Positions 2,006 through 22,464 of a DNA stretch of 64,000 nt are shown piece by piece. A program made the position numbers and the translations under genes. The notes below the pieces were generated by a model. The model was given only the letters and a program-made list of their open reading frames with translations, did not search any database and had not been told where the DNA came from. How positions within the stretch are numbered: position 1 is the first letter of the stretch; each line of letters opens with the position of its first letter. This DNA is from a virus (Duplodnaviria > Caudoviricetes). The stretch spans positions 4,702 to 68,701 of the IMG/VR virus record IMGVR_UViG_3300044719_000205; one strand, 5' to 3'.

Positions 2006-2287
2006 ATGAGCGCGAAAGCCGACATCGAGCAGCTCAAGGAGCAGGTCCTGGGTAACCTCAAAGTCATCGACGATGAGATCAACTACATCCTCGGTGGTGG
2101 CGCCATAGGCAACATGCCTGAGCAACGCATCAGCGACCGAGACCTACGCGAAGCCATGGCCGGCCTCGAGACCTTCATTGCGATCGCACTGCGCGTCTTC
2201 GCCAAGACCAATCCGAGCAAGATCCGCAGCGAGGCGATCACGCAAGAGATCGCCAGCCGAATCAGCGGCAAGACTCTGATCATCTGA
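2006..2287 (+). CDS. Hypothetical helical protein
   Basis: ORF with phage-like codon use; C-terminal EIASRISGK. Confidence 0.7.
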   Translation: MSAKADIEQLKEQVLGNLKVIDDEINYILGGGAIGNMPEQRISDRDLREAMAGLETFIAIALRVFAKTNPSKIRSEAITQEIASRISGKTLII

Positions 2288-2298
2288 TTCGACTCAGG

Positions 2299-2440
2299 AC
2301 AGAAGCCCAGCACTCAAGGTACCACGAGGCTAACAGCTAGGCTTCTGTGCTGGGTCGATCCGCGTTTGCGCGGCAACGCGCAGCACACGAGCACACAAAC
2401 GGACTATGCGGCTTTGTCCCCCGTGCGTTTCGACCCAGCA
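2299..2440 (+). ncRNA. Putative structured RNA / leader upstream of the AAA+ gene
   Basis: 11-bp inverted repeat 2348-2358/2430-2440 encloses two hairpins; a competing strand at 2299-2313 is complementary to 2340-2354. Confidence 0.3.
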
Positions 2441-2445
2441 TCTAA

Positions 2446-2460
2446 TCTCTAACTTCGATC
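2446..2460. promoter_or_regulatory. Palindromic operator-like site (TCTCTAA-C-TTCGATC)
   Basis: Member of the recurring GATCKAA-N-TTMGATC motif; about 20 bp upstream of the AAA+ ATG. Confidence 0.55.
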
Positions 2461-2481
2461 TACTCTGCAAGGAAGACACTA

Positions 2482-3504
2482 ATGCGCCCCTCTTCGATCG
2501 CCCGCACCGTCACCCTCCTGACCAAGAAGCAGCGTCCGTGCTTCATCTGGGGCCCGCCCGGCGTTGGCAAGTCCGATGTGATCGCCCAGGTCGCTGAGGC
2601 CAACGAGATGGAGCTGCGCGACGTGCGGCTGAACCTGCTCGACCCGGTCGACCTGAAGGGCTTCCCGGTGCCGGACCACGAGACCAAGCAGATGTCCTGG
2701 TACCCGCCTGACTTCTTGCCGCCGATGCACGTGAAGAAGGGCAACAAGATGGTGCCCAATCCCTCGAAGGGCATCCTGTTCCTGGACGAGCTGACCTCCG
2801 CCGAACGCTCGGTGCAGGCCGCCTCCTACCAGCTGATGCTCAACCGTGCGATCGGTGACTACAAGCTGCCCGACGGCTGGTCGATCGTCGCTGCGGGCAA
2901 CCGCGCCAGCGACCGCTCTGTCGTTCACGCCATGCCAGCGGCGCTGTCCAATCGTCTTGTCCACCTCGACTACGAGGTGAACCTCGACGACTGGTGCCAG
3001 TGGGCGCTGAAGAACGGCATCAAACCCGAGGTGCTGGCGTTCATTCGTTTCAAGTCGAACCTGCTGCACGACTTCAAGCCCAGCGACAACCCGCGTGCGT
3101 TTCCCACGCCGCGCAGCTGGATGTTCGTCAACGAGATCATCGGCGAGGGCCTGCCGGCCGATGAGGAGTTCGAGACCATCAAGGGCACCGTCGGCGAAGG
3201 TGCGGCCGGCGAGTTCCTCGCGTTCCTGCGCGTGATCCGCGACATGCCGAACCCGGACGAGATCCTGGTCAATCCGAAGGGTGCGCCGGTGCCCGAGCAG
3301 CCGTCGGTGCTCTACGCGCTCACCACATCCTTGGCGATCCGTGCCACGAAGGACAACTTTGACCGGCTGATGCAGTACACCGACCGGCTGCCCACCGAGT
3401 TCCAGGTGGTCTTCGTGCGCGACAGCGTCAAGCGCTGCGACGACGTGAGCAAGTCGCAGGCGTTCACGAAGTGGGCCATCGCGAATAGCGACGTGCTGAT
3501 GTGA
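2482..3504 (+). CDS. MoxR-like AAA+ ATPase (AAA_5 type)
   Basis: Walker A GPPGVGKS, Walker B ILFLDE, sensor-1 AAGN, arginine finger ALSNRL, PTPRSW. Confidence 0.9.
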   Translation: MRPSSIARTVTLLTKKQRPCFIWGPPGVGKSDVIAQVAEANEMELRDVRLNLLDPVDLKGFPVPDHETKQMSWYPPDFLPPMHVKKGNKMVPNPSKGILFLDELTSAERSVQAASYQLMLNRAIGDYKLPDGWSIVAAGNRASDRSVVHAMPAALSNRLVHLDYEVNLDDWCQWALKNGIKPEVLAFIRFKSNLLHDFKPSDNPRAFPTPRSWMFVNEIIGEGLPADEEFETIKGTVGEGAAGEFLAFLRVIRDMPNPDEILVNPKGAPVPEQPSVLYALTTSLAIRATKDNFDRLMQYTDRLPTEFQVVFVRDSVKRCDDVSKSQAFTKWAIANSDVLM

Positions 3505-3698
3505 ACGACGATGAACTGGTACGGGCGGCCACGTCCGCACCACTTTCTGTTGTCTACGACGTGTGGTGCCGCATCGACCATCATCCGTATGGAAGCTTAA
3601 GCGACTGGTACAAGCACCTTCAACAACGCAATGTGCATGCGCTTGAAGTCGCTGAAAGGATGCTGCCATTGATCGTCGAAGCGAGGCTGAAGCAATGA
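3501..3698 (+). CDS. Small helical protein with RL tag
   Basis: GTGA-coupled; ends LIVEARLKQ. Confidence 0.75.
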   Translation: MNDDELVRAATSAPLSVVYDVWCRIDHHPYGSLSDWYKHLQQRNVHALEVAERMLPLIVEARLKQ

Positions 3699-3910
3699 AC
3701 CGCATCCCGAAGACCGCGCCACCACTGCCCGATCTCGCGATCTGGAAAGAACTCTGGACTTCGGGCAGCCACAACTACGGCAAGCGCATGCGCGGGCTTC
3801 GTGCCTGCGCACGCGACGCCGCCAACGGCAACCGGCGCGCGAAGGAGATCATGGCGCAGGTGTGGGAAGAGCACGCACGCCGTGTCGTTCTGGCGAGGTT
3901 GAAGTCATGA
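3695..3910 (+). CDS. Small helical protein with RL tag
   Basis: Ends ANGNRRAKEIMAQVWEEHARRVVLARLKS. Confidence 0.75.
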   Translation: MNRIPKTAPPLPDLAIWKELWTSGSHNYGKRMRGLRACARDAANGNRRAKEIMAQVWEEHARRVVLARLKS

Positions 3911-4113
3911 GCAGCTGGAACTTCATGAAGGCCATCGACGAGATGGGCCCAGCCAACTTCCGCATCTGGGAGCGCGTGCGCAAGGGCACGCCCTTCAAGG
4001 ATCAGTGCACGCCGCGCGGTGCGATGTACCGCGCAGCCCGCGGCGACGAAGCAGCCAGGGCGATCGTCGAGCAGTACAAGGCCGAGCTGGTAAAAGCGAG
4101 GCTGAAGTCATGA
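3907..4113 (+). CDS. Small helical protein with RL tag
   Basis: ATGA start 3907; ends ARGDEAARAIVEQYKAELVKARLKS. Confidence 0.75.
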   Translation: MSSWNFMKAIDEMGPANFRIWERVRKGTPFKDQCTPRGAMYRAARGDEAARAIVEQYKAELVKARLKS

Positions 4114-4328
4114 CCTGCACTGCGATTGACTCGGTGATGGAAAACTGCATCGCAGATGCAGCCGCGGAGGTATACGGGCGCTACTGGTGGCTCAGGAAAT
4201 TCTGTCCAGACACTCACGAACAATGGCAAGCATTCCTCCACCGCGTCCAAAGGGGCGCAAACGATCCGAGGCGGCGCACGTTGCGCCGGATCTGGCTCCG
4301 CGCCGTCGCACTAAGACTGAGTCGGTGA
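4110..4328 (+). CDS. Small protein with RL tag
   Basis: ATGA start 4110; ends WLRAVALRLSR. Confidence 0.7.
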   Translation: MTCTAIDSVMENCIADAAAEVYGRYWWLRKFCPDTHEQWQAFLHRVQRGANDPRRRTLRRIWLRAVALRLSR

Positions 4329-4606
4329 CGCCGGAGTGGGAGTGGGAGTGGGATGGTGAGCACCGACCTGTACTGATCATGGACGAGGTCTCGCGCATCC
4401 ACACCACGCGCCACGAGATGTTCATTCGCGCTTGCGAGGCCACGCACGGCAACGCCATCAGCCCCAAGACTGTCGCTCGCCTCGATGCCCAGGAGATCGA
4501 AAACCTCATCACCAAGATGCAGCGCTACGCGCGCAGCTCCGATCCGAAGAAAGCACCATGGAAACGACTGAACGCGGCGTTCGTGAAGCTGCTCTTGAAC
4601 TGCTGA
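4325..4606 (+). CDS. Hypothetical protein
   Basis: GTGA-coupled start 4325; ends AFVKLLLNC. Confidence 0.6.
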   Translation: MTPEWEWEWDGEHRPVLIMDEVSRIHTTRHEMFIRACEATHGNAISPKTVARLDAQEIENLITKMQRYARSSDPKKAPWKRLNAAFVKLLLNC

Positions 4607-4863
4607 AGAAAGTGCTTCAAGGCTATAAAGCAGATGGCATCTTGGACGACACGTTCCGCAATCTGTGGCGCGAGTACCTCTACGAGCTGTATGGCCCGCT
4701 CATGAGTCGCGAAAACCACCCGTACCGCAAGTTTGACAGCACTTGGACTGACGACATACGCACACTCAAAGCTGACCTCCGTGCCAATGATCCGAGCGCG
4801 CTGGACTTTGCTGAAAAGTGGCTCACGTGGTGCACCGCTCAACGACTCAAAGGAGAATCCTGA
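4558..4863 (+). CDS. Small helical protein with RL tag
   Basis: Ends ANDPSALDFAEKWLTWCTAQRLKGES; TGATG-coupled to the next gene. Confidence 0.7.
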   Translation: METTERGVREAALELLKKVLQGYKADGILDDTFRNLWREYLYELYGPLMSRENHPYRKFDSTWTDDIRTLKADLRANDPSALDFAEKWLTWCTAQRLKGES

Positions 4864-5687
4864 TGTCCCTCAACACCCAGGCAATGCTGGCGAACCTCAA
4901 CATCAGCCAGTGGACCGCCCGCAAGCACGACCGCAAGGCCACGGCCGAGGTCGAGCAGAACCACGCGGCCAAGGACGCCGGCCGCTTTAACAAGCTCCTC
5001 ATCGACAAGTCCGCGCTGGAAGCGATCCAGAAGGTCGCCAGCGCCGCGCGTGACCACCACTACAAGGTCACGCTGCCCTGGGGCGACAACGGCGACCGGC
5101 TGCTCCCGAGCAAGCTCTACCTCACCTACACCCAGGACATGCGGCTGTTCCGCCAGCAGTTCGAGAGCGAGGTCAACATCTTCGTGCGCGACTACCCGCA
5201 CCTCGTGCAGAGCGCGCGCCAGCGCTTGGGCACGCTGTACGACCCGGCGGACTACCCGATGGACATCCGCGACCGGTTCTCCTTCTCCACCGCCTTCACA
5301 CCAGTCCCCGATGCCAAGGACTTTCGTGTCGATGTGGCCGCCGAGGATGCCGAACGCATCCGCAGCGACATCGAGCGCATGGTGCAGGACCGGCAGGCCC
5401 AGGCCGTACGCGACGCGTTTGACCGGGCCAGGGACATCGTGCTGCGCGTGCGGGACCGCTGCAGCGCCGAGAAGCCAATCATTCGCGAGTCCCTGATGGG
5501 CAACGTGCAGGAACTGATCGACATGCTGCCAGCGTTCAACCTGACCAAGGACCCGAAACTCGACGAGCTGGCCCGCGATCTCAAGGGCCTCGTCAAGCAT
5601 CCCGACGCTCTGCGGACGCGAGCGGACGTGCGCGAGGACACGGCCAAGGCAGCGAGCGACATCCTGTCGAAGATGGGGTGGAACTGA
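4863..5687 (+). CDS. DUF3150-like protein
   Basis: MLxxLxISxWTARK start, TLPWxDNGxRLLP and LGxLYDPADYP patterns typical of the family that accompanies MoxR/vWA genes in mobile elements; AAGGAG SD. Confidence 0.7.
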   Translation: MSLNTQAMLANLNISQWTARKHDRKATAEVEQNHAAKDAGRFNKLLIDKSALEAIQKVASAARDHHYKVTLPWGDNGDRLLPSKLYLTYTQDMRLFRQQFESEVNIFVRDYPHLVQSARQRLGTLYDPADYPMDIRDRFSFSTAFTPVPDAKDFRVDVAAEDAERIRSDIERMVQDRQAQAVRDAFDRARDIVLRVRDRCSAEKPIIRESLMGNVQELIDMLPAFNLTKDPKLDELARDLKGLVKHPDALRTRADVREDTAKAASDILSKMGWN

Positions 5688-5905
5688 GGACGACCCCTTC
5701 AGGTTCGGGCGACACGATCCTCTGGGATGACCGTCCGATCATCTACGCCGCGATCGGCAACTTGCGCTGTCAGTTCCCGGATGTGCACAGCAAGTGGTCA
5801 AGCTCTCGCCATGACAATGCAGTGATCGACGCATTCAAGGACGACCCCAAATTCCGCGAGGCGTTGACGGCCGAGATCATCAAGCTGAGGTTGGAATGGA
5901 GCTGA
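5678..5905 (+). CDS. Small protein, 'DPxFRE' pair, RL tag
   Basis: Ends FKDDPKFREALTAEIIKLRLEWS. Confidence 0.7.
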   Translation: MELRTTPSGSGDTILWDDRPIIYAAIGNLRCQFPDVHSKWSSSRHDNAVIDAFKDDPKFREALTAEIIKLRLEWS

Positions 5906-6171
5906 AGTTCAACAGCGTCAACACAACGGCGCGAGATTATCCGTATCGACCGATCGTCGTTCGCCTGTTCTGTGAAGACAAAGCCCCTCGTACCTTGTTT
6001 GTTGCTGCTGCCGAACGCCTTTACAACTACTACCCCGAAGTGATCGACACGTGGCGCAACGAAAGCGGCGATGGCGTGATTGAAGACCGATACAACAACG
6101 ATCCAGCCTTTCGCGAGATGCTCGTTGAAGCGCTTACTGCCATCTTGGTCAAGCACAAGCTCGTGAGCTGA
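5896..6171 (+). CDS. Small protein, 'DPxFRE' pair
   Basis: Ends YNNDPAFREMLVEALTAILVKHKLVS. Confidence 0.7.
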   Translation: MELKFNSVNTTARDYPYRPIVVRLFCEDKAPRTLFVAAAERLYNYYPEVIDTWRNESGDGVIEDRYNNDPAFREMLVEALTAILVKHKLVS

Positions 6172-6173
6172 TC

Positions 6174-6404
6174 ATGCACTTCGCCAAAGGCAGGATGGAC
6201 GACAAGCAGCGGCTCTATTACGACGCGCTGCGTGCGCTCGCGATCGGGCACGACATCTACCGCAAGAACCTCGTCACATTCACCAACGCCGATGAGCGTT
6301 GGCGCAACCGCTTCATCGCCCACATCGAACGACAATCCGAAGCCGGCCTGCCCTTTGCGGTAGAGCTGGTGCAAGCCGTCACTCTACTCAGGTTGAAAGC
6401 ATGA
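6174..6404 (+). CDS. Small helical protein with RL tag
   Basis: Ends SEAGLPFAVELVQAVTLLRLKA. Confidence 0.75.
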   Translation: MHFAKGRMDDKQRLYYDALRALAIGHDIYRKNLVTFTNADERWRNRFIAHIERQSEAGLPFAVELVQAVTLLRLKA

Positions 6405-7579
6405 CCACCAAGACCCCCGACGCCGAAGTCCTCAAGAAGCTCACCAAGGCACGCGCCACGCTGATCATCGACCAGCCGTTCTTCGGCACGCTGGCGCTGC
6501 GGCTGAAGCTCGTGCCGATGCCCGATGAGCTGGAGGCCATGCAGAAGGCCCGTGGCATGAAGCCCACACTGGCGGTCGATGGCGAGCATATCTACTACTG
6601 CGAAGACTTCATCCGTGACCTCGACCTGCCGCTGGTGAAGTCCGCCTTGGCGCACGAAGTCGGCCACTGCGTGTTCGACCACATCGGCCGCCGCGGGCAC
6701 CGCGATCCGACCGGCTGGAACATGGCCGGCGACTACGTCATCAACGACATGCTCAAGGATGCCGGCTTCCCGCTCGGCGAGGGCTGGCTGTGGAACGCGG
6801 CCTACAAAGGCATGAGCGCGGACCAGATCTACAACCAGCTGCCGAAGAATCCGCAGGGCGGCCAGGGCCAGGGTCAAGGCAAGGGCAACTCCCAGGGCGG
6901 CAACCAACCGCTGTGCGACATCCTCGACGGCAAGCAGGACCCGGCCGACAAGGCGATGCAGCAGAACGACTGGAAGGTGGCGACCATCCAGGCGGCCAAT
7001 GCAGCGAAGCAGCAGGGCAAGCTGCCCGGCTCTCTCGCACGCTTCGTCGAGGAGATGACGGCGAGCAAGGTGGATTGGCGCGACAAGCTGCGCCGCTTCA
7101 TTACCGAGCGCGCCAAGGACGAGTACAACTGGCATCGCCCGAACCGCCGCTACCTGAGCGCAGGCTTGTACCTGCCGAGCCTGTACAGCGAGCACCTGGG
7201 CACGATCGTCGTGGTGACCGATGACTCGGGCTCGATCGGTGACGACATGCTCAAGGCCTTCGCCTCCGAGATCGGCGCGATCCGTGACAGCACGCTGCCC
7301 AAGAAGACCATCCACATCTCCTGCGACGCTCGCGTCAACCACGTGGCCGAGTTCGAGCAGCACGACGAGTTCAAGCTCGTCAGCAAGGGCGGTGGTGGCA
7401 CCGACTTCCGCCCGCCCTTCGACTGGCTCGACAAGCGCGGCATCAAGCCGGCATGCCTCGTGTACCTCACGGACATGTACGGCAGTTTCCCGCAGCAGGC
7501 GCCGGATTACCCGGTGCTGTGGTGCGCCACGACCGGACAGGTGGGGCCATGGGGCGAGACGGTGAAGATCGAGTTGTAA
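6401..7579 (+). CDS. Metallopeptidase + vWA domain protein (DUF2201-like)
   Basis: HExxH (AHEVGHC), MIDAS DxSxS (TDDSGSI), GGGGTDF, LTDMYG; ATGA start at 6401. Confidence 0.85.
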   Translation: MTTKTPDAEVLKKLTKARATLIIDQPFFGTLALRLKLVPMPDELEAMQKARGMKPTLAVDGEHIYYCEDFIRDLDLPLVKSALAHEVGHCVFDHIGRRGHRDPTGWNMAGDYVINDMLKDAGFPLGEGWLWNAAYKGMSADQIYNQLPKNPQGGQGQGQGKGNSQGGNQPLCDILDGKQDPADKAMQQNDWKVATIQAANAAKQQGKLPGSLARFVEEMTASKVDWRDKLRRFITERAKDEYNWHRPNRRYLSAGLYLPSLYSEHLGTIVVVTDDSGSIGDDMLKAFASEIGAIRDSTLPKKTIHISCDARVNHVAEFEQHDEFKLVSKGGGGTDFRPPFDWLDKRGIKPACLVYLTDMYGSFPQQAPDYPVLWCATTGQVGPWGETVKIEL

Positions 7580-7806
7580 AGGCTTCGATACCGTTCACGC
7601 ATCGTCAGCTGCGCTGCTTTGCGTACCTCGCCAATGACGAACGAGGCATGGCGCTTTTTGAGCATGCAGGAGCACAACGTGTCGCGTTACAGGACCAACA
7701 CGGTCAGTGGTTCCTTGTATGCAATGAAGGCTCTAGCGAACACGGAGACATCGGGCCGGTGCCTTTCGAAGTGGCACTGGCCCTCGTTCGATTGAAAGGA
7801 ACATGA
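7549..7806 (+). CDS. Small protein, 'DxGP...RL' paralog family
   Basis: Ends EHGDIGPVPFEVALALVRLKGT; ATG 7549 preceded by AGGTG. Confidence 0.65.
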   Translation: MGRDGEDRVVKASIPFTHRQLRCFAYLANDERGMALFEHAGAQRVALQDQHGQWFLVCNEGSSEHGDIGPVPFEVALALVRLKGT

Positions 7807-8285
7807 ACATGGGATGCGACATCCACCTTGTGCTGGAGCGCAAGGACAAGGAGCGCGACCGCTGGGTCGGCGTGCGGAGCTACCGCTACTTCGCAGCGAG
7901 CCTGCTGTACCGCGTGAAGATCACCAGCAACTACGCCGGATACGTCCTCAAGCAGCGCGACTACAGTCTCTTCAACGACCTCTGTGGTGTGCGCGGCGAC
8001 GGCTCCGAGTTCGGCTACGAGCCCAAGGGCTTGCCCGATGACATGTCGGACCTGACAGCAATGGAGCTGAGCGACGACAGCGACCTGCACAGCCATTCCT
8101 GGCTCAGCATGGCCGAGCTACGGCCGGTGATGGAGAAGCACTTCGGTCCGCAGCTCGTTGCCGGTCGGCTCAAGGACGAAGTGCGTGCCGGTGCCGACGT
8201 GCTGCGCACGTTCGTCGACGACGACATCGGCGATGAGTACGCACCTGAAGAAAACTGGCGTCTGGTGTTCGCCTTCGACAATTGA
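7803..8285 (+). CDS. Conserved phage protein (MGCDIH...AFDN type)
   Basis: MGCDIH, RDYSLF, PKGLPDD, HSHSWL, RLVFAFDN motifs. Confidence 0.75.
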   Translation: MNMGCDIHLVLERKDKERDRWVGVRSYRYFAASLLYRVKITSNYAGYVLKQRDYSLFNDLCGVRGDGSEFGYEPKGLPDDMSDLTAMELSDDSDLHSHSWLSMAELRPVMEKHFGPQLVAGRLKDEVRAGADVLRTFVDDDIGDEYAPEENWRLVFAFDN

Positions 8286-8449
8286 TGGGCAAGCCGCTTC
8301 CGCCCGGCCCGGTGTGGGAGTGCCCGGGGTGCCAGCGCGCCTACGGGCACTACTTCACCCAGTGCGCCTACTGCAAGCCCACCATCTACAGGCCAGGACA
8401 TGAAGTTCAGCGAACTGCCCGACAACGTAAAGGACCGCCTACGCGATGA
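8285..8449 (+). CDS. Small C4 zinc-ribbon protein (54 aa, below the ORF-track cutoff)
   Basis: TGATG-coupled; MGKPLPPGPVWECPGCQRAYGHYFTQCAYCKP... Confidence 0.6.
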   Translation: MGKPLPPGPVWECPGCQRAYGHYFTQCAYCKPTIYRPGHEVQRTARQRKGPPTR

Positions 8450-9005
8450 AAGGCGTGACTGGAACGTGCAGGACAGCGACTGGTGGAGCAGCGTCTACGA
8501 CGACTTTCTCGTCATCGCTGACCTGATCGGCCTCGTCACCCACAAGGGCGCCATCTCGTTCTCCGGCTTCTGGAGCCAGGGCGATGGCGCGAGCTTCGTT
8601 GGTTCCTGGACACCCGAGGAAGGCATGCTCGAAGCCGTCAAGGCGCATGCGCCCGAGGACAAGGCCTTGCACGCGCTCGTCGAGCGCCTCGTCACCGTGG
8701 TGGTGCGCCAGCGCCTGCGCAGCAACGAGAAGATCGCCGTCGAAATCGGCCGCACCGGCGGCCACTACGTGCACTCCGGGTGCATGACGGTCACCACGCA
8801 GCTCATCGACGACAGCAGCCCCGAGTACGAGGTTCACACGGACCCCGAGGAGGAAGACGAGCACGAGCTGAAGTGGACCTTCCGCGGCCTCGCTGACTGG
8901 CTGTACCGGCAGCTCGAGAAGGAGCACGAGTACCTCACCTCGGACGAAGTCGTCGATCAGAGCTTCGACGGCGAGGAGTTCGACGAAGCTGGCGAGCCGA
9001 TCTAA
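8400..9005 (+). CDS. Conserved acidic phage protein
   Basis: WWxxVYDDF, FSGFWSQGDGASF, LYRQLEKEHEYLTSDE. Confidence 0.75.
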   Translation: MKFSELPDNVKDRLRDERRDWNVQDSDWWSSVYDDFLVIADLIGLVTHKGAISFSGFWSQGDGASFVGSWTPEEGMLEAVKAHAPEDKALHALVERLVTVVVRQRLRSNEKIAVEIGRTGGHYVHSGCMTVTTQLIDDSSPEYEVHTDPEEEDEHELKWTFRGLADWLYRQLEKEHEYLTSDEVVDQSFDGEEFDEAGEPI

Positions 9006-9013
9006 GTTAGATG
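8999..9013. promoter_or_regulatory. Palindromic operator-like site (GATCTAA-G-TTAGATG)
   Basis: Motif copy at the end of the 8400 gene, upstream of the nuclease. Confidence 0.55.
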
Positions 9014-9047
9014 TAAGATCGCGGCCTCTACCCATTAAGGACATTCC

Positions 9048-9773
9048 ATGGATGCACGCGTCGCGGGCCCGATCAAGTCGTGGTCCCACTCCAAGCTCGT
9101 CGAGTTCGACAAGTGCAAGCGCCGGGTGTGGCTCATGCACGTGCAGCGCATCCCCGAACCACAGCGCCCGCTGCCGCCGGGTAAGACTGAGCACGCCAAC
9201 GACCGTGGCTCCCGCGTCCACGACAATGCCGAACGCTACGTGCGCGGCGACGATCACGTGCTATGCATCGAAGCCGAGAAGCACTTCGGCCCACAGATCG
9301 ACTTCCTGCGCGTGCTCTACCAGGAAGGGCTCGTCTCCCTCGAAGGCGAGTGGGGCGTCGACCAGGACTGGAACCCGTGCGACTACAAGAGCGCATGGCA
9401 TCGCTCCAAGCTCGATGCGATCGTGTTCTGGGACAAGACCCACGCCACGGTCATCGACTACAAGACCGGCAAGAAATTCGGCAACGAGGTCAAGCACGGC
9501 GAGCAGATGCAGCTCTACCAGCTCAACGCGTTCCTGCGCTACCCCGAGCTGGAGGAGATCACGTGCGAGCTGTGGTACCTCGACGTGAATGAGGTGACCA
9601 GCCGCACCTTCACCCGCTCGCAAGGCCTGCGCTTCAAGGACAACTTCCATCGCCGCGGCATGGCGATGACCAGCTGCACGGAGTTCCCGCCCAATGCCAA
9701 CGTCTTCTCCTGTCAATACTGCATGTACGGCTCCTGGGGCACCGGACACTGCGAAGTCGGAGTCAAGCGCTGA
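9048..9773 (+). CDS. PD-(D/E)XK exonuclease, Cas4/RecB-like, with four-Cys cluster
   Basis: WSHSKL..F.KC, G..VH, KLD, VIDYKTGK, QMQLY, C-terminal CQYC...C. Confidence 0.85.
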   Translation: MDARVAGPIKSWSHSKLVEFDKCKRRVWLMHVQRIPEPQRPLPPGKTEHANDRGSRVHDNAERYVRGDDHVLCIEAEKHFGPQIDFLRVLYQEGLVSLEGEWGVDQDWNPCDYKSAWHRSKLDAIVFWDKTHATVIDYKTGKKFGNEVKHGEQMQLYQLNAFLRYPELEEITCELWYLDVNEVTSRTFTRSQGLRFKDNFHRRGMAMTSCTEFPPNANVFSCQYCMYGSWGTGHCEVGVKR

Positions 9774-9909
9774 GGTTGTTCACGCGCTGGGCGACCCGTT
9801 TCAACCGAGCAAAACGTGGTCCTTATGTGGCGGTCATGGACCCGTTGCTTGGCCGTTGAGGGAGATAGTGACCTGTCCTCAGTGCATCAAGGCAAGGCTC
9901 CTGCGATGA
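9694..9909 (+). CDS. Small Zn-finger protein with RL tag (start uncertain, coding-like from about 9775)
   Basis: H...LCGG...VTCPQCIKARLLR. Confidence 0.55.
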   Translation: MPTSSPVNTACTAPGAPDTAKSESSAEVVHALGDPFQPSKTWSLCGGHGPVAWPLREIVTCPQCIKARLLR

Positions 9910-10091
9910 ACGAACCCACTCCCCTGCACTACGCACCGCTGCCCGGCCCCTACCGTGCGTACTGCGGCTCCGAGAGCAAGCGCTGCACACGCATGCCGCA
10001 GTTCATCACGTGCCCGACATGTCGTGAACACCAGACGGCGGCCGAGGTGTACGCACGAATCATCGGCGCTGCACAAGGACAAGGTCGATGA
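9906..10091 (+). CDS. Small Zn-finger protein
   Basis: LHY...YCGS...ITCPTC; ATGA-coupled. Confidence 0.7.
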   Translation: MNEPTPLHYAPLPGPYRAYCGSESKRCTRMPQFITCPTCREHQTAAEVYARIIGAAQGQGR

Positions 10092-10300
10092 AGAAGCACA
10101 CCCGATTGCAGAAGCGCCTCGCCAAGAAGATCCACATGCGCAACCCGGCTAACCGGCTGTACCCAAGCAACTTCACGGCGACATGGTGCGGCGCGTGGAT
10201 CACTGCCGAAGCGCGCTTCACGAGCAAGGCCGAAGGTGTCACGTGCCACATCTGCAAACGCAACGCTCGCGAATTCGCTTTGGCAAGGTTGACCAAATGA
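10088..10300 (+). CDS. Small Zn-finger protein with RL tag
   Basis: IH...WCGA...VTCHIC...EFALARLTK. Confidence 0.7.
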   Translation: MKKHTRLQKRLAKKIHMRNPANRLYPSNFTATWCGAWITAEARFTSKAEGVTCHICKRNAREFALARLTK

Positions 10301-14812: not shown

Positions 14813-14996
14813 TGCGCTGCGCCAATACATCCGCGAGCTGGCCGTGCTCGAGTATTTCGTCGTGTTGCGCCTCAATACACTAGTGAATGGTTACGACGGG
14901 CTCATCACTAGTTCGAAGTTCCGTGCGCTGCGCTGGCTCATCACGAACTGGCGCGAGCACCAGCAGAAGGCCGTCCTCGCCCGACTGCAATCCTGA
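14793..14996 (+). CDS. Small protein with RL tag
   Basis: Ends EHQQKAVLARLQS. Confidence 0.55.
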   Translation: MSSTRNDALRQYIRELAVLEYFVVLRLNTLVNGYDGLITSSKFRALRWLITNWREHQQKAVLARLQS

Positions 14997-15120: not shown

Positions 15121-15546
15121 ATGGCACGAGCCGCAGTGAAGGACGCCGCCACCGCCAAAGCCGTGAAGCTGCGGCTGGTCGGCACCATCGGTGGCATGAC
15201 CGACGAGATGTTCGACTTGCGCGAGAAGAAGCGCGCACTCGAAGCCCAGATCGCCGAGATCGAAGAGCAGTACAAGGCGATCGAGGAGAAGCTCATGGAG
15301 CGCCTCGAAGCCGAGGGCACCGACAAGGGCGCGGGCAAGAAGGCCTCGTGCTCGATCACCAGCTCGGTGGTCGCCAACGTCACCGACTGGGACGAGTTCG
15401 GCGCCTTCATCCTCAAGCACAAGTACCTCCACCTTCTGCAGCGGCGGGTCTCCGATCCGGCGGTGCGTGAGCTGTTCGAGACCAAGGGCAAGGTGCCCGG
15501 TGTCGAGCCGTTCACCAAGAAGAAGCTCAACCTCCGCGTCATCTGA
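15121..15546 (+). CDS. Coiled-coil protein, Gam/Gp157-like
   Basis: N-terminal heptad helix, VTDWDEF..F, LLQRRVS, VPGV; AAGGAG SD. Confidence 0.55.
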   Translation: MARAAVKDAATAKAVKLRLVGTIGGMTDEMFDLREKKRALEAQIAEIEEQYKAIEEKLMERLEAEGTDKGAGKKASCSITSSVVANVTDWDEFGAFILKHKYLHLLQRRVSDPAVRELFETKGKVPGVEPFTKKKLNLRVI

Positions 15547-19332: not shown

Positions 19333-20318
19333 ACAAGGCCTGGGTGCTGTCCTGGGTGCAGAATGGCAAGCAGCGCCGCAAGGTCGTGGGCCGGCTCACC
19401 ACCATGAGCAAGCGCGAGGCTGAACTGGTGCGCAAGGCCAAGGAGCTGGAGCTTGCCACCGGCAAGAAGCTCCTGAATGTCTCTGTGCGCTCGATCCTCT
19501 GGACCACGTTCTGCGATCAGTACCTTGACTGGAGAGTGCGCGAATTCCCGTCGTCCGCGGTGCAGGTCAAGAGCCTAGTGGATGGGCACCTTCGCCCGAA
19601 GTTCGAACATCTAACGTTGGATCGAATCACCAGCGATTCGATCGAAGAATACAAGGCCGAGCGGCTCGAGGAAGTGCGCGCAGCGACAGTGGTGAAGGAA
19701 CTCAACACCCTGCGCGCGATGTTCGAATACGCGATCACCAAGAAGCTGGTGCAGGTCAACCCGGGCCGGGTCATTCCGAACCCGCAGCTGCTCAACAGCG
19801 TGCCGCGCGAGTTCTACACGCTGGAGCAGCTGAAGCAGCTCTACGCCGCCGAGATCAACGCCGGCTACGACGCGATGTGGAAGCTCTTCGCCAACACCGG
19901 CATGCGCCGCAAGGAAGGGCTGCAGCTGAAGTGGACGCACGTGACGGCGAAGTCGATCCGCATCCTGTCGACTGAGGAGGCGCGCACCAAGAGCGCGAAG
20001 TGGCGCGAGGTGCCGCTCACCGAGTCGGGCATCGAGGCGCTGATGAAACTGCGCGTGTACAACCAGAACGAGTTCGTGCTGCCGCGCATGGAGCTGTCGA
20101 GCCTGTCGCGGGCGTTCACGCGCACCGCCAAACGCGCGCTGCTGCCGGGCTCGATCCACTGGTTGCGCCACACGTTCATCAGCCACCTCGTAATGGCCGG
20201 GCGGCCGCTGCGCACCGTGCAGGTGCTCGCCGGGCATAGCACGATCGCGGTGACGGAGAAGTACGCGCACCTCGCGCCGGACTACATGGCAGACGTGATG
20301 AAGGGAATCAATCTGTGA
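19311..20318 (+). CDS. int: Tyrosine recombinase (phage integrase)
   Basis: Catalytic R (TGMRRKE), K (TKS), HxxR (HWLRH), H (LAGH), Y (TEKYAH). Confidence 0.92.
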   Translation: MATVRAVDKAWVLSWVQNGKQRRKVVGRLTTMSKREAELVRKAKELELATGKKLLNVSVRSILWTTFCDQYLDWRVREFPSSAVQVKSLVDGHLRPKFEHLTLDRITSDSIEEYKAERLEEVRAATVVKELNTLRAMFEYAITKKLVQVNPGRVIPNPQLLNSVPREFYTLEQLKQLYAAEINAGYDAMWKLFANTGMRRKEGLQLKWTHVTAKSIRILSTEEARTKSAKWREVPLTESGIEALMKLRVYNQNEFVLPRMELSSLSRAFTRTAKRALLPGSIHWLRHTFISHLVMAGRPLRTVQVLAGHSTIAVTEKYAHLAPDYMADVMKGINL

Positions 20319-20590
20319 GCGAGCTATCGGACACCCAGCGCAAGCTACGCGAGTTGGGTTGGCAGCGTTGGGACTACGATCGCGCCCGCATGGAAGGCTG
20401 GCGCCTGGATGCGTTGTGGGGCGGTCGAGGCCGTGTGCTCGTTGCCCGCCACACCCACATCCCCGGCGACGTATCGCGCTTCGGATCTCGCAAGGAAGCT
20501 GAGGCTCACGTGATGAAGAAGGCGTCTGAAGGCTCGCAACTGCACATGCACGCGCTCGCCATCATCGCCAAAGCGAGGCTCTTGAAATGA
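20315..20590 (+). CDS. Small protein with RL tag
   Basis: Ends ASEGSQLHMHALAIIAKARLLK. Confidence 0.7.
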   Translation: MSELSDTQRKLRELGWQRWDYDRARMEGWRLDALWGGRGRVLVARHTHIPGDVSRFGSRKEAEAHVMKKASEGSQLHMHALAIIAKARLLK

Positions 20591-21283: not shown

Positions 21284-22192
21284 ATGTCCTTCAAGCCGAT
21301 GCTCGCCGCCGCAGCCGATCTCGAGAAGCTGCGCTTCCCACTCTACGCCTCACCGAAGCTCGACGGCATCCGTGCCATCGTGCGCGACGGCGTGGTCCTC
21401 TCCCGCACGCTCAAGCCGATCCCGAACGCGCACGTGCAGCGCGTTTTCGGCAATCAGGCCTACAACGGCGTCGATGGTGAGCTGATCGTCGGGCCGCCCA
21501 CCAGCAAGACCGTCTACCAGGACACCGTCAGTGGCGTCATGAGCCGCGACGGCGAACCCGACGTGACGTTCTATGCGTTCGACTATCTGCCCACCGACGG
21601 CTGGACCGAGTACCCGTGGCTGCATCGCTTCACGGAGCTGAAGCGGCGCATCAACTACGTGCTCATCGAGCCGCTGGACCACTGGGAGATCACGAACCAC
21701 GGCGGGCTTTTCGGGACCGAGGAGAAGGTCATCGAGCGCGGCTACGAAGGCCTGATCCTGCGCCATCCACAGGCGACGTACAAGTTCGGCCGCAGCACCG
21801 TCAACGAGGGCTACCTGCTCAAGCTCAAGCGCTTCCAGGACAGCGACGCGATCGTGCTCGACGTGATCGAGGAGATGTTCAACGGCAACGAGGCGACCAA
21901 GGACGAGCTTGGTAGGACCAAGCGCTCCAGCGCCAAGGCCGGCAAGGTCGGCAAGGGCACGATGGGCGCGCTCAAGGTGATGGACATCCACACCGGTGTC
22001 GAATTCGAGTGCGGTGCGGGCTTCACAGCCGAGCAGCGCGCGAAGTTCTACACGGACCCGCCGAAGCTCATCAAGTACAAGTTCTTCCCGATCGGCGTCA
22101 AGGACAAGCCGCGGCACCCGGTGTTCCTCGGTGCGCGTGATCCGAGTGATGTCGAGTTGAGCACGGCGATGCGTACGAGGCTGCGGAAATGA
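21284..22192 (+). CDS. lig: ATP-dependent DNA ligase (minimal type)
   Basis: Motif I SPKLDGIR, DGEL, YAFD, EGLILR, LLKLK, C-terminal PRHPVF. Confidence 0.9.
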   Translation: MSFKPMLAAAADLEKLRFPLYASPKLDGIRAIVRDGVVLSRTLKPIPNAHVQRVFGNQAYNGVDGELIVGPPTSKTVYQDTVSGVMSRDGEPDVTFYAFDYLPTDGWTEYPWLHRFTELKRRINYVLIEPLDHWEITNHGGLFGTEEKVIERGYEGLILRHPQATYKFGRSTVNEGYLLKLKRFQDSDAIVLDVIEEMFNGNEATKDELGRTKRSSAKAGKVGKGTMGALKVMDIHTGVEFECGAGFTAEQRAKFYTDPPKLIKYKFFPIGVKDKPRHPVFLGARDPSDVELSTAMRTRLRK

Positions 22193-22464
22193 GCAAGACC
22201 GAACAGATTGAGCTTGAGTTCGAGCGCCAGCTTGGCATCGGCTCTTACCGCACGCTGCACTGGGGCGGTCTCCGCTTGGCCTCTGGTACCGCGGGGGCGA
22301 TCTGGACGTTCTTCACCTACCTGCGCGCCATATTCGGGGCCATGGACGGCTCTGGCTACCTGATGGCGATCTTCTCGCTCGCTGCGATGTGCGTGTGCTG
22401 GTACGCCGAACGGCGCCACCAGCGGTGCGTCGCCGAGGACGTGAAAGCGAGGCTGCTGTCGTGA
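22189..22464 (+). CDS. Small two-TM membrane protein with RL tag
   Basis: Two hydrophobic segments; ends AEDVKARLLS. Confidence 0.7.
   Translation: MSKTEQIELEFERQLGIGSYRTLHWGGLRLASGTAGAIWTFFTYLRAIFGAMDGSGYLMAIFSLAAMCVCWYAERRHQRCVAEDVKARLLS

Follow-up and report, generated by a model that had tools for sequence, protein, structure and literature searches.

Arg-Leu endings of small early phage proteins as probable dual-use gene junctions

Within the window, i.e. the whole stretch of 64,000 nt of phage DNA analysed here, small early genes frequently end in Arg-Leu-x-x (RL tail), and we consider it rather likely that this tail represents a dual-use gene junction and not a signal for the AAA+/vWA machine encoded beside it. 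The ending would be shared because its codons serve both as the last turn of a protein's final helix and as the ribosome-binding site of the next gene. RL lies within the last eight residues of 19 of the 55 early genes, compared with 5% of internal 8-mers (binomial p 8e-12); 17 of the 40 small early genes carry the tail, but only 3 of the 36 late genes. The motif [hydrophobic/K/E/Q][A/L]RL[K/T/S/L/Q/R/E] occurs 16 times in all window proteins, 13 times no more than five residues from the C-terminus. The RL ending noted in the preliminary description of this DNA is a real motif, and it is selected at the peptide level, judging by the conservation of its residues despite codon change (see below).

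The window stems from a 69-kb temperate phage. Pfam, phrog and motif matches bear out the identity proposed earlier for a trio of larger genes (AAA+ of the AAA_5/MoxR-midasin clade, DUF3150-like, HExxH-vWA), and the ten small genes interleaved with them were found with the coordinates given at that time:

2482..3504, + strand: AAA+ ATPase, AAA_5 / MoxR-midasin clade; opens the packed gene chain 2482-9005
3501..3698, + strand: small gene, 65 aa, ends ARLKQ; first of three post-AAA paralogues
3695..3910, + strand: small gene, 71 aa, ends ARLKS; GCG AGG TTG AAG TCA TGA
3907..4113, + strand: small gene, 68 aa, ends ARLKS; modelled as four-helix protein
4110..4328, + strand: small gene, 72 aa, ends LRLSR; AGA CTG AGT CGG TGA, GTGA overlap
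4325..4606, + strand: small gene, 93 aa, ends KLLLNC; tail without Arg and without clear Shine-Dalgarno sequence (SD)
4558..4863, + strand: small gene, ends QRLKGES; 101 aa (start ATG 4558) or 83 aa (start GTG 4612)
4863..5687, + strand: DUF3150-like protein, 274 aa; PF11348 E 3.7e-4, 20.3 bits, under the cut-off of 24.9
5678..5905, + strand: small gene, 75 aa, ends LRLEWS; paralogue of the 5896 gene; AGG TTG at codons -5/-4
5896..6171, + strand: small gene, 91 aa, ends HKLVS
6174..6404, + strand: small gene, 76 aa, ends LRLKA; member of the family between DUF3150 and vWA genes
6401..7579, + strand: DUF2201_N (HExxH metallopeptidase-like) + DUF2201 vWA protein; PF13203 1.6e-47, PF09967 3.7e-22
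7549..7806, + strand: small gene, ~85 aa, uncertain start, ends VRLKGT

The AAA+ protein matches Pfam AAA_5 at 23.5 bits (cut-off 22) and phrog_1297 at 2.7e-105, with the proper MoxR model AAA_3 scoring under its own cut-off; it contains Walker A (GPPGVGKS, 2551-2574) and Walker B (ILFLDE, 2773-2790) motifs, and its closest solved sequence is a midasin AAA domain (7.9e-5). The DUF3150-like gene keeps the same position in relatives, and four of ten orthologues match PF11348 (best 4.7e-9). The vWA protein matches phrog_1314 at 3.5e-103 and carries HEVGH (6653-6667) and a MIDAS-like DDSGS (7220-7234). These three genes constitute a separate and widespread phage module; we know of no client of it.

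Eight of the ten small ORFs (3501-7806) indeed end in RL, as stated previously, compared with about one third of the other small early genes; the two lacking it are those at 4325 (KLLLNC) and 5896 (KLVS). All ten are real genes, each having its orthologue in a relative with 93% identity in the AAA protein, and their dN/dS ranges from 0.15 to 0.53 with the sole exception of the 4110 gene, which is under the weakest selection (0.84). For the 3501 gene, the L001 orthologue is 67% identical with a dN/dS of 0.25. The small genes evolve far faster than the trio (dN 0.2-0.55 versus 0.07-0.09), the small proteins being 44% identical where the AAA protein is 93% identical. Start codons at 4558/4612 and 7549 are uncertain. 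The small genes had been described as all translationally coupled; most of their junctions are 4-nt ATGA/GTGA overlaps, and the others are two 10-nt overlaps, one 1-nt TGATG overlap and one 2-nt gap. The chain 2482-9005 has no internal gap above a few bases, and these genes presumably form one operon along which translational coupling probably takes place. Neither promoter-like nor terminator-like signals were found on the + strand between 2200 and 9200.

It is established that ATGA/TGATG overlaps can couple translation when the upstream gene contains the SD (PMC6728339, PMC2784483), and the tail Arg codons are placed accordingly. AGG accounts for 57 of the 1181 Arg codons in the window and AGG/AGA for 13 of the 22 tail Arg codons; 20 of the 57 AGG codons fall in the last eight codons of genes, 13 of them exactly at codon -4. 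The tail Arg is usually this rare AGG, at -11..-9 from the next start, i.e. at the SD position. As the intergenic-gap SDs of this phage (AGGAG, AAGGA, GGAGGA) end at -9..-7, the region -12..-9 is a normal SD place. Duplexes of the junctions with ACCUCCUUA have energies of about -6 to -8 kcal/mol (random mean -3.1). TTG follows AGG in 4 of 12 tails versus 5.6% of all Leu codons, giving AGGU and thus one extra pair with the 16S end; furthermore, the third base of codon -5 is G-rich and codon -6 tends to end in A. An example is the end of the 3501 gene, whose tail codons GCG AGG CTG AAG CAA TGA include the SD of the following gene as well as its start:

3681..3698, + strand: dual-use junction example, (A)AA GCG AGG CTG AAG nnA TGA, with stop/next-start overlap

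Here the duplex between the 16S 3' end and AAG-(C bulge)-GAGG has an energy of -7.8 kcal/mol (random 5th percentile -6.9). The direct-repeat families D7 and D12 lie at 3681, 3893, 4096, 20571 and 22447. Two tails of the trio region are built differently: in the 4558 gene the Arg is CGA (Q in the L001 orthologue) and the next gene's SD, AAAGGAG, reads K-G-E, and in the 7549 gene the Arg is likewise CGA and the SD AAAGGA reads K-G.

One of these tails belongs to the unnamed family of the 6174 gene (143 cluster representatives by profile, 88 at E<=1e-10), which lies between the DUF3150 and vWA genes in 10 of 10 loci with both flanks visible and is a fixed extra component of the trio module in the window's clade. 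Its Arg is near-invariant at codon -4 (93% of members), and the residue after it is L (55%), M (37%) or I (6%), with Phe (TTY) and Val (GTN) almost absent at this position in 141 members, and exactly three residues follow the Arg in 101 of 141. In the window, as in L001 and L013, the place after the AAA gene is taken by a second RL-ended family. AF2 predicts the 6174 protein as a four-helix bundle (pLDDT 91.4, pTM 0.80), the last helix of which (60-75) carries RLK; for the 3907 protein (alignment A1; pLDDT 79.5, pTM 0.65) RLK lies in the last helix 48-67. In these models the tail is the last turn of an ordered helix and not a loose or exposed tag, and its Leu probably packs into the protein core.

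Could the tail be a pure nucleotide by-product, an in-frame translation of SD and spacer whose peptide is not itself selected? The position of AGG at -11..-9, the G-rich third base of codon -5, the A-ending codon -6 and the enriched TTG would all fit, but the codon data largely refute this reading, which we regard as very improbable. Of the 18 genes with a terminal AGG/AGA, 13 have Leu next (among the early genes, 12 of 14; background 8%), yet Leu follows none of 31 internal AGG codons, and late genes with AGG at -4/-5 continue with H, M or K. In all 11 tails compared between the window and a close relative, the residues at -4, -3 and -2 agree, against 69% identity in the gene bodies; the same codon is used in 91% of cases at -4 but only 45% at -3, where residue identity is 100%. 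Tail Arg is spelled CGC, CGG and CGT in three L013 paralogues, which take their SD from K-G codons, CGN in L003, and CGN again in 6 of 19 early-region tails of the window; the CGN tails at 1537 and 14996 have no overlapping downstream gene and that at 1811 no SD. In the post-AAA small genes R-L-K is invariant (nine sequences, three phages), with Arg as AGG in the window. Finally, the near absence of Phe and Val at the Leu position of the 6174-type family is not expected from nucleotides alone, as both share the second-base U.

Most cistrons of the chain begin at the stop of the preceding gene or a few bases ahead of it (ATGA, GTGA, TGATG); according to the dual-use reading, downstream genes would be translated by terminating and re-initiating ribosomes, helped by an SD in the upstream gene's last codons. 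Where the overlap is 4 nt, the reading frame divides the SD core GAGG at -12..-9 into xxG-AGG, so that the fourth codon ahead of the stop encodes Arg; the frequent spelling AAA GCG AGG (K-A-R) approximates AAGGAGG with one bulged base. The small early proteins are mostly short and helical, with a last helix reaching the C-terminus, and selection also keeps Arg, then an aliphatic residue (Leu; Met/Ile in relatives), then a polar or basic residue as the helix's last turn. The tail would then be a helix-compatible spelling of a ribosome-binding site, shared because of tandem duplication in several small-gene families together with the same two constraints at every junction, and probably also because of gene gain and loss at the junctions. 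Indeed, the synteny breaks between the window and the close relative lie no more than a few bases from the stops 4113, 6404, 9773, 10300 and 22192: the relative has a whole extra gene after 4113 and after 6404, and the window has ~147 extra bases at the 9773 junction. Judging by these breakpoint positions, similarity between junctions may promote recombination.

RL tails also occur elsewhere in the window, namely in the genes 697, 1271, 1560, 9694, 10088, 14844, 20315 and 22189 and in a ligase; some of them lie 7-15 kb from the trio, on unrelated proteins including this enzyme:

14844..14996, + strand: possible 50-aa gene ending VLARLQS; Arg = CGA
20315..20590, + strand: small gene ending AKARLLK, unrelated, 13 kb from trio; AAA GCG AGG CTC TTG AAA TGA
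21284..22192, + strand: ATP-dependent DNA ligase, 302 aa, ends ..STAMRTRLRK; phrog_114 at 2e-58
22189..22464, + strand: small gene ending VKARLLS, unrelated; AAA GCG AGG CTG CTG TCG TGA

The ligase has its RL within the last ~12 of its 302 residues, and alignments with homologues extend no further than residue 290; in NP1 the ligase has the end ..MGEVK, GGAGAA being the SD of the next gene there. The tail of the 14844 gene has no SD role, since the next called gene starts at 15136, ~140 nt on; the gene itself is uncertain because it is not conserved in the close relative.

Conversely, the trio often occurs without tails. RL tails are absent from PA5oct and from the N4-like phage Axy13, both of which have the AAA and vWA genes, the IMG/VR loci L050, L053, L057 and L060 have the trio with tails at background level, and enrichment is confined to a clade with at least 57% polymerase identity. 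We found no phage with RL tails that lacks the trio. The preliminary description expected tail and trio to occur independently of each other if its proposal were wrong; as trios without tails were found and tails without a trio were not, only one half of this independence is seen.

That proposal, which makes the RL helix a docking or client signal for the AAA+/DUF3150/HExxH-vWA machine, with the small proteins acting as swappable adaptors that recruit its targets, appears quite unlikely to us. It can draw on the peptide-level selection of R and L, on the frequency of the tail inside the trio (8 of 10 versus about one third of the other small early genes) and on the rapid evolution of the small genes, which matches the expectation for variable adaptors. 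The positional part of the proposed association stands, with a post-AAA and a DUF3150-vWA family at fixed places of the module; the tail as the machine's signal is not supported. The module is widespread in phages without such tails, the trio genes of L005 are almost adjacent with few tails, distant proteins such as the ligase bear the tail, the model (pLDDT 91) has it in an ordered helix instead of an exposed peptide, and the Arg codon is mostly the next gene's SD, to which its choice is adapted. Our analysis gave no indication of the tail being read by the adjacent AAA+/vWA machine. An unlikely alternative reader would be another partner, either a host protease or unfoldase scheduling the turnover of early proteins, or the terminating ribosome, where basic end residues would aid release at the weak UGA forced by the AUGA overlap. 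ClpX is a reader of basic C-terminal motifs, for instance that of MuA, and termination at UGA is sensitive to the last two residues of the nascent chain. Such a partner would account for R, L and the next residue being kept in unrelated families and in tails without an SD role, and for the near restriction to early small proteins, but the helix is predicted to be ordered to the penultimate residue, no candidate reader can be named, and the tail is limited to one phage clade whereas host proteases are general.

Common ancestry of all RL-tailed small proteins, as one fast-evolving helical-bundle superfamily of tandem duplicates from the 6174-type family in which only the most constrained C-terminal residues are still recognisable, is an idea to which we give little credence. 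There are tandem arrays of similar-sized genes, paralogue pairs (5678-5905 vs 5896-6171, blastp 1.8e-8; 308/697, 3.5e-7; 3695/3907, 0.018), four-helix models for both the 3907 and 6174 proteins, a 35% hhalign probability for A1 vs A3 over the last two helices, and the very fast divergence noted above. After removal of the last 10 residues, though, profile comparison detected no homology between tailed families (all probabilities below 10%), so common descent cannot explain the sharing; moreover, some of the tailed proteins clearly differ, those of 9694 and 10088 being CxxC zinc-ribbon-like, those of 308 and 697 having apparently unrelated sequences, and the ligase being an enzyme of 302 aa. 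The dual-use reading has difficulties of its own. An SD alone needs no Leu, and xxG GAG Gxx would be equally strong and also helix-compatible; as other spellings are possible, soft structural constraints would predict less uniformity than the near-exclusive R-L seen in more than 10 apparently unrelated families. In addition, the DNA repeats at the junctions span only ~18-26 nt and occur in only some genes, and two RL-ended families at fixed trio positions across deep divergence leave room for a functional link.

Among known systems, the tail resembles C-terminal degradation and docking tags in being a short C-terminal peptide common to otherwise unrelated proteins. Examples are ssrA, the MuA-type basic C-motif read by ClpX and the acidic tails of T7 gp2.5 and gp4. 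Known tags are exposed and have an identified reader, whereas the phage tail, for which no reader is known, forms the end of an ordered helix in the models and shares its codons with a ribosome-binding site. MoxR-type AAA+ proteins act with vWA partners (RavA-ViaA, CbbQ-CbbO, NorQ-NorD, CoxD-CoxE), as does midasin with its own MIDAS domain; here, too, an AAA_5-clade ATPase gene, closest to the midasin AAA domain among solved sequences, adjoins a gene for a vWA protein with a DxSxS MIDAS-like motif. The phage differs in the N-terminal HExxH DUF2201_N domain of its vWA protein, in the DUF3150-like and 6174-type genes between the two, and in an AAA_3 score under cut-off. With termination-reinitiation coupling the chain shares 4-nt and 1-nt stop/start overlaps, many chained cistrons and an SD-like sequence at the usual distance in the upstream gene's last codons. 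Here, however, the SD codons and the next two residues form a recurring end of more than 10 apparently unrelated proteins that is itself under selection in the window phage; such a shared protein tail is not described in Huber et al. 2019 (PMC6728339) or Palleja et al. 2009 (PMC2784483). Lastly, PeSLs are mobile regulatory cassettes of hyperplastic regions in T4-type phages, intergenic, about 50-60 bp long and each combining a promoter with a stem-loop (Arbiol et al. 2010, PMC2839356; PMC4122927). In both cases short repeats border small, fast-evolving early genes, and indels and replacements between close relatives fall at those borders, but the repeat of the present phage consists of 18-26 nt of coding sequence plus a start codon.

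The RL-containing C-terminal endings of the small early proteins of this phage, which we call tails, are best explained as dual-use junctions, i.e. helix ends that double as ribosome-binding sites. The window covers bases 4702-68701 of an IMG/VR virus record that is 68.7 kb long and has direct terminal repeats. Its first 24.5 kb contain + strand early and replication genes (SNF2 helicase, family-A polymerase, PD-(D/E)XK nuclease, ligase and integrase), and the remainder is mainly taken up by structural genes on the - strand (portal, major head protein and large terminase). Real genes show a GC3 of about 0.85-0.95, which served as an aid in separating them from chance ORFs. An N4-like identity of the phage was dropped, as an integrase is present and a giant virion RNA polymerase was not seen, and an Rfam scan of 1-25000 found no RNA family. 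A long ORF at 308-700 overlaps the 3' end of the 69-443 gene by 136 nt; the conservation it seems to show across this overlap probably belongs to the other frame, which makes a real start after 443 likely. Palindromes of the type ATCTAA..TTAGAT are found at 2441-2462 and 8999-9013, in the two intergenic gaps on either side of the gene chain 2482-9005, and agree with an operator-like motif described before from elsewhere in the genome. For the following three genes, referred to as the trio or module, our analysis confirmed the positions assigned in the preliminary description:

2482-3504, + strand, AAA+ protein
4863-5687, + strand, DUF3150-like protein
6401-7579, + strand, HExxH-vWA protein (DUF2201 gene)

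The AAA+ protein carries a Walker A motif (GPPGVGKS, residues 24-31; criterion GxxGxGK[ST]) and a Walker B motif (ILFLDE, residues 98-103; criterion hhhhDE), matches phrog_1297 'ATPase' at 2.7e-105 and has midasin as its nearest solved sequence. In Pfam it scores just over the cut-off for AAA_5 (23.5 against 22). Its earlier name 'MoxR-like' is fair as a label for the AAA_5/MoxR-midasin-dynein clade; the score for the MoxR family itself, AAA_3, stays under the cut-off (17.4 against 27). The vWA protein shows the domain order DUF2201_N (PF13203, 162.9 bits, residues 12-261, cut-off 23.2) to DUF2201 (PF09967, 79.2 bits, residues 269-391, cut-off 26.4), with HEVGH (HExxH) at residues 85-89 and DDSGS (MIDAS-type DxSxS) at residues 274-278, and is classed as a putative metallopeptidase and vWA-like DUF2201 protein. 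The DUF3150-like protein scores 20.3 for PF11348 (cut-off 24.9), a family matched by four of its ten syntenic orthologues at E≤0.01 (best 4.7e-9), and would be a divergent relative of DUF3150. Relatives of the vWA protein occur in 568 phage records; the trio is a known and widespread phage module.

As described before, ten small ORFs lie between and after the trio genes, with RL within the last six residues in eight of them and the endings KLLLNC and KLVS in the other two. They are real genes, because every one has an orthologue in the close relative G001 (loci L001 and L039; AAA protein 93% identical) and dN/dS values are 0.15-0.53 (0.84 for the gene at 4110). They evolve much faster than the trio (dN 0.2-0.55 vs 0.07-0.09), and searches of Pfam and PHROGs gave no significant match for any of the ten. 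RL is present in the last eight residues of 19 of 55 early genes, compared to 5% of internal 8-mers (p 8e-12), and in 3 of 36 late genes. A five-residue tail motif occurs 16 times across all window proteins, 13 times within five residues of the C-terminus; the three internal copies are all spelled CGN, and the internal 'RL helix' copies noted previously are hence at background level. The RL tail is a property of gene ends, far above chance. Three small genes after the nuclease gene (9694-9909, 9906-10091 and 10088-10300) share TC(P/H)xC zinc-ribbon-like motifs; the start of 9694-9909 is doubtful, since this gene overlaps the nuclease-gene 3' end by about 80 nt and some 147 nt of it are missing from the close relative.

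Stop and start codons are closely spaced between 3501 and 7806, where the preliminary description had the small ORFs translationally coupled. Counting ATGA, GTGA, TGATG or a stop and start a few bases apart, -4 or -1 overlaps (mainly ATGA/GTGA) make up eight of the 13 junctions, and the others comprise two -10 overlaps, one +2 gap and two with uncertain starts. The typical spelling of a tail is GCG AGG YTG AAR nnA TGA. AGG accounts for 4.8% of Arg codons, yet AGG or AGA is used for 13 of 22 tail Arg codons; 20 of the 57 AGG codons fall within the last eight codons, 13 exactly at codon -4 (counted back from the stop). Under an ATGA overlap codon -4 occupies nt -11 to -9, and where genes are separated by gaps, the Shine-Dalgarno (SD) sequences of this phage end at -9 to -7; GAGG or AAGG at -12 to -9 in the last part of the upstream gene is therefore at a working SD distance. 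Duplex energies of the junctions with ACCUCCUUA are mostly -6 to -8 kcal/mol, compared to a random mean of -3.1, with weak duplexes at the junctions 4325 (-2.2) and 6401 (-3.2 kcal/mol). The frequent AAA GCG AGG pairs with the 16S 3' end as AAG-(bulged C)-GAGG (-7.8 kcal/mol; random 5th percentile -6.9), and in 4 of 12 tails AGG is followed by TTG, a rare codon (5.6% of Leu codons), giving AGGU. Judged from the sequence, the tail Arg codon is thus predicted to be the SD of the next gene. A bulged extended SD (AGG-Y-UGA) as the cause of the Leu was ruled out, as orthologues change to CTT, CTC and TTA. Long DNA repeats at gene ends were not found, only junction repeats of 18-26 nt, and the exact motif GAGGYTGAAR occurs only three times, which argues against a single DNA element.

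A tail that is purely a by-product of the SD, as these spellings might suggest, is excluded by the conservation of the Leu, by CGN spellings of the Arg and by tails without a downstream SD role. In 13 of 18 genes with a terminal AGG/AGA (12 of 14 among the early genes) the next residue is Leu, where the background is 8%; for internal AGG codons this holds in 0 of 31 cases. By our own arithmetic the binomial p of this excess is about 1e-10. When the window is compared with G001, all 11 orthologue pairs have the same residues at tail positions -4, -3 and -2, against 69% identity in the bodies. Codon identity is 91% at -4 and only 45% at -3, so that the Leu is kept through synonymous change. A more distant relative, L013 (AAA identity only 42%), contains three tandem paralogues directly after its AAA gene (8980-9697) that align with the three post-AAA genes of the window (3501, 3695 and 3907) and end in RLKGLV, RLKGTL and RLKGTL; here CGC, CGG and CGT encode the Arg, and the K-G codons supply the SD (AAAGGA) instead. 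The same pattern is seen in L003 and L065, with CGA and CGG. Within the window, CGN encodes the Arg in 6 of 19 early-region tails; of the CGN-tailed genes, two (ends 1537 and 14996) are not overlapped by a gene downstream, and one (end 1811) lacks an SD. In the family of post-AAA paralogues R-L-K is invariant in nine sequences from three phages, and the model consists of four helices, the last of which holds the tail. The tail forms the end of a helix with a pLDDT of 77-91 in two AF2 models.

The other tailed family is that of the small gene upstream of the vWA gene, here called 6174-type after its start coordinate. Several relatives carry a further conserved gene between the 6174-type and vWA genes, which the window lacks:

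Window 6174-6404 (+ strand); L002 10485-10712; L073 4995-5225: 6174-type gene, about 75 aa, four helices, between the DUF3150-like and vWA genes
L002 10712-11449; L005 10066-10761; L072 6111-6935; L073 5647-6363: extra gene, about 230-275 aa

In L002, L005 and L072 the extra gene has ..(F/Y)DRLPR.. at or close to its end, and the L073 copy ends differently. A word-indexed search with the 6174-6404 gene returned only itself and one relative, and a search of 1.84 billion proteins with a HMMER profile of six orthologues found 143 cluster representatives (clusters at 50% identity), of which 88 had E≤1e-10. The Arg is among the five best-conserved positions of this family (93% R, 6% K), the residue after it is L (55%), M (37%) or I (6%) and hardly ever V or F. 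In 101 of 141 members the protein ends exactly three residues after the Arg, which places the Arg at codon -4. Even in the extended protein of L005, where RL lies 11 residues from the end, it is conserved. The 6174 protein is confidently modelled by AF2 as a four-helix bundle (pLDDT 91.4, pTM 0.80) whose last helix (residues 60-75) bears RLK. For neither AF2 model did fold searches give a convincing neighbour; Foldseek matches in PDB and BFVD had E>1, the best VIA Z was 5.3, which is noise level for helical bundles, and every score in the ESM Atlas comparison was under 0.9. The 6174-type gene follows the DUF3150-like gene in ten of ten loci with both flanks visible (window, L001, L002, L003, L005, L065, L072, L073, L075 and L076), and on its 3' side the vWA gene follows immediately or is separated from it by a single gene, either one of about 240 aa or another small one. 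In an eleventh locus, the 1-kb fragment L074, only the vWA start is visible downstream. Pattern scans for further family context added only five loci and yielded none in genome_contigs, and for P0022 there was no match among isolated phages. The 6174-type family represents a new, unnamed and consistent fourth member of the module in the clade of the window.

Kinship of the other tailed proteins to these two families is not detectable at the level of sequence profiles: with the last ten residues trimmed, every small ORF has an hhalign probability of <10% against the 143-cluster family, and with tails kept the best values are 30-35%. Detectable paralogue pairs are 5678/5896, 308/697 and 3695/3907, and at least ten families, among them the DNA ligase, have only the ending in common. 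Ligase homologues align to residue 290 of 302. The ligase of phage NP1 ends in ..MGEVK, GGAGAA being the SD of its next gene, and the window ligase ends in ..TRLRK with GAGG, i.e. the two lineages write the same signal as different peptides. The clade-specific ending ..DPSDVELSTAMRTRLRK (window 22145-22192) reaches about 12 residues past the NP1-type alignable part; the close relative keeps it, with AGG TTG instead of AGG CTG.

The preliminary description had taken the RL tail for a tag read by the AAA+/vWA machine and had expected tag and trio to co-occur across genomes. Our survey covered two sets of IMG/VR loci, 19 with the AAA gene as anchor and 31 with the polymerase. It revealed no phage that has tails and lacks the module, but such a sampling was hardly able to reveal one. 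Tails are enriched only in the clade nearest the window (polymerase identity ≥57%), with 11 of 42 genes in L039/G001, 11 of 39 in L065 (p 4e-5), 7 of 34 in L042/G003 and 5 of 27 in L041. The trio-bearing loci L050, L053, L057 and L060 have tails at background level, and PA5oct and the N4-like Achromobacter phage Axy13 possess AAA and vWA genes with other genes between them and no RL tails. In the window itself, tails are also found 0.7-2.2 kb upstream of the trio as well as 2-3 kb (9694 and 10088) and 7-15 kb downstream of it (14844, 20315, ligase 21284 and 22189). Thus the module works without tails and tails are not confined to the module, and the proposed tag is unsupported as stated. Since two RL-ended families, 6174-type and post-AAA, hold fixed places in the module, a slim chance remains that the machine reads the tail.

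The same two families leave some room, still small, for a shared plug of any kind. We consider it unlikely that the RL helix end serves as a genuine interaction motif common to these proteins. In such a scenario fast-evolving small proteins, with the ancient 6174-type family as prototype, would plug into a single partner via one conserved C-terminal turn, hydrophobic-x-x-R-[L/M]-x-x. Either the AAA+/DUF3150/vWA module or a host factor might be this partner. The phage would then maintain a set of exchangeable adaptors or inhibitors, and their common plug would double as the ribosome-binding site of the next gene.

For the favored dual-use junction, a short protein ending can be set by two codes together, helix packing and ribosome binding, and a tail shared among phage proteins should therefore not be called a tag until one has looked at the start of the downstream gene. 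In engineered phages, a recoded tail would also alter the expression of the next gene. The 6174-type family, with its 143 clusters and near-invariant Arg at codon -4, offers a handle on a module found in hundreds of phages.

Whole small genes are also gained and lost right at the junctions, which illustrates the turnover of early-gene repertoires. The window and G001 lose synteny within a few bases of the stops at 4113, 6404, 9773, 10300 and 22192. G001 has an extra 134-aa gene ending in KLRLTR after the 3907-type gene (L001 9629-10033), and an extra 66-aa gene without RL ending between the 6174-type and vWA genes (L001 12586-12795). The 4110-4328 gene is flanked by similar stretches of about 14 nt, (A)TTGACTCGGTGA at 4124-4139 and GACTGAGTCGGTGA at 4313-4328; the first copy is read in another frame in the relative, as the RLTR tail of the inserted gene. 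Promoter-like sites and + strand terminator-like sites were not found in 2200-9200. A role in gene turnover has been proposed for the PeSL cassettes of T4-type phages (PMC2839356), and the insertions, deletions and replacements between the window and its close relative likewise fall at repeats; the window junction repeat, however, is short (18-26 nt) and coding, and not a promoter and stem-loop unit between genes. An SD in the upstream 3' end together with a stop/start overlap is the known arrangement of termination-reinitiation coupling (PMC6728339, PMC2784483). The window junctions resemble such coupled gene pairs in both the overlap and the upstream SD, and coupling itself is predicted for them.
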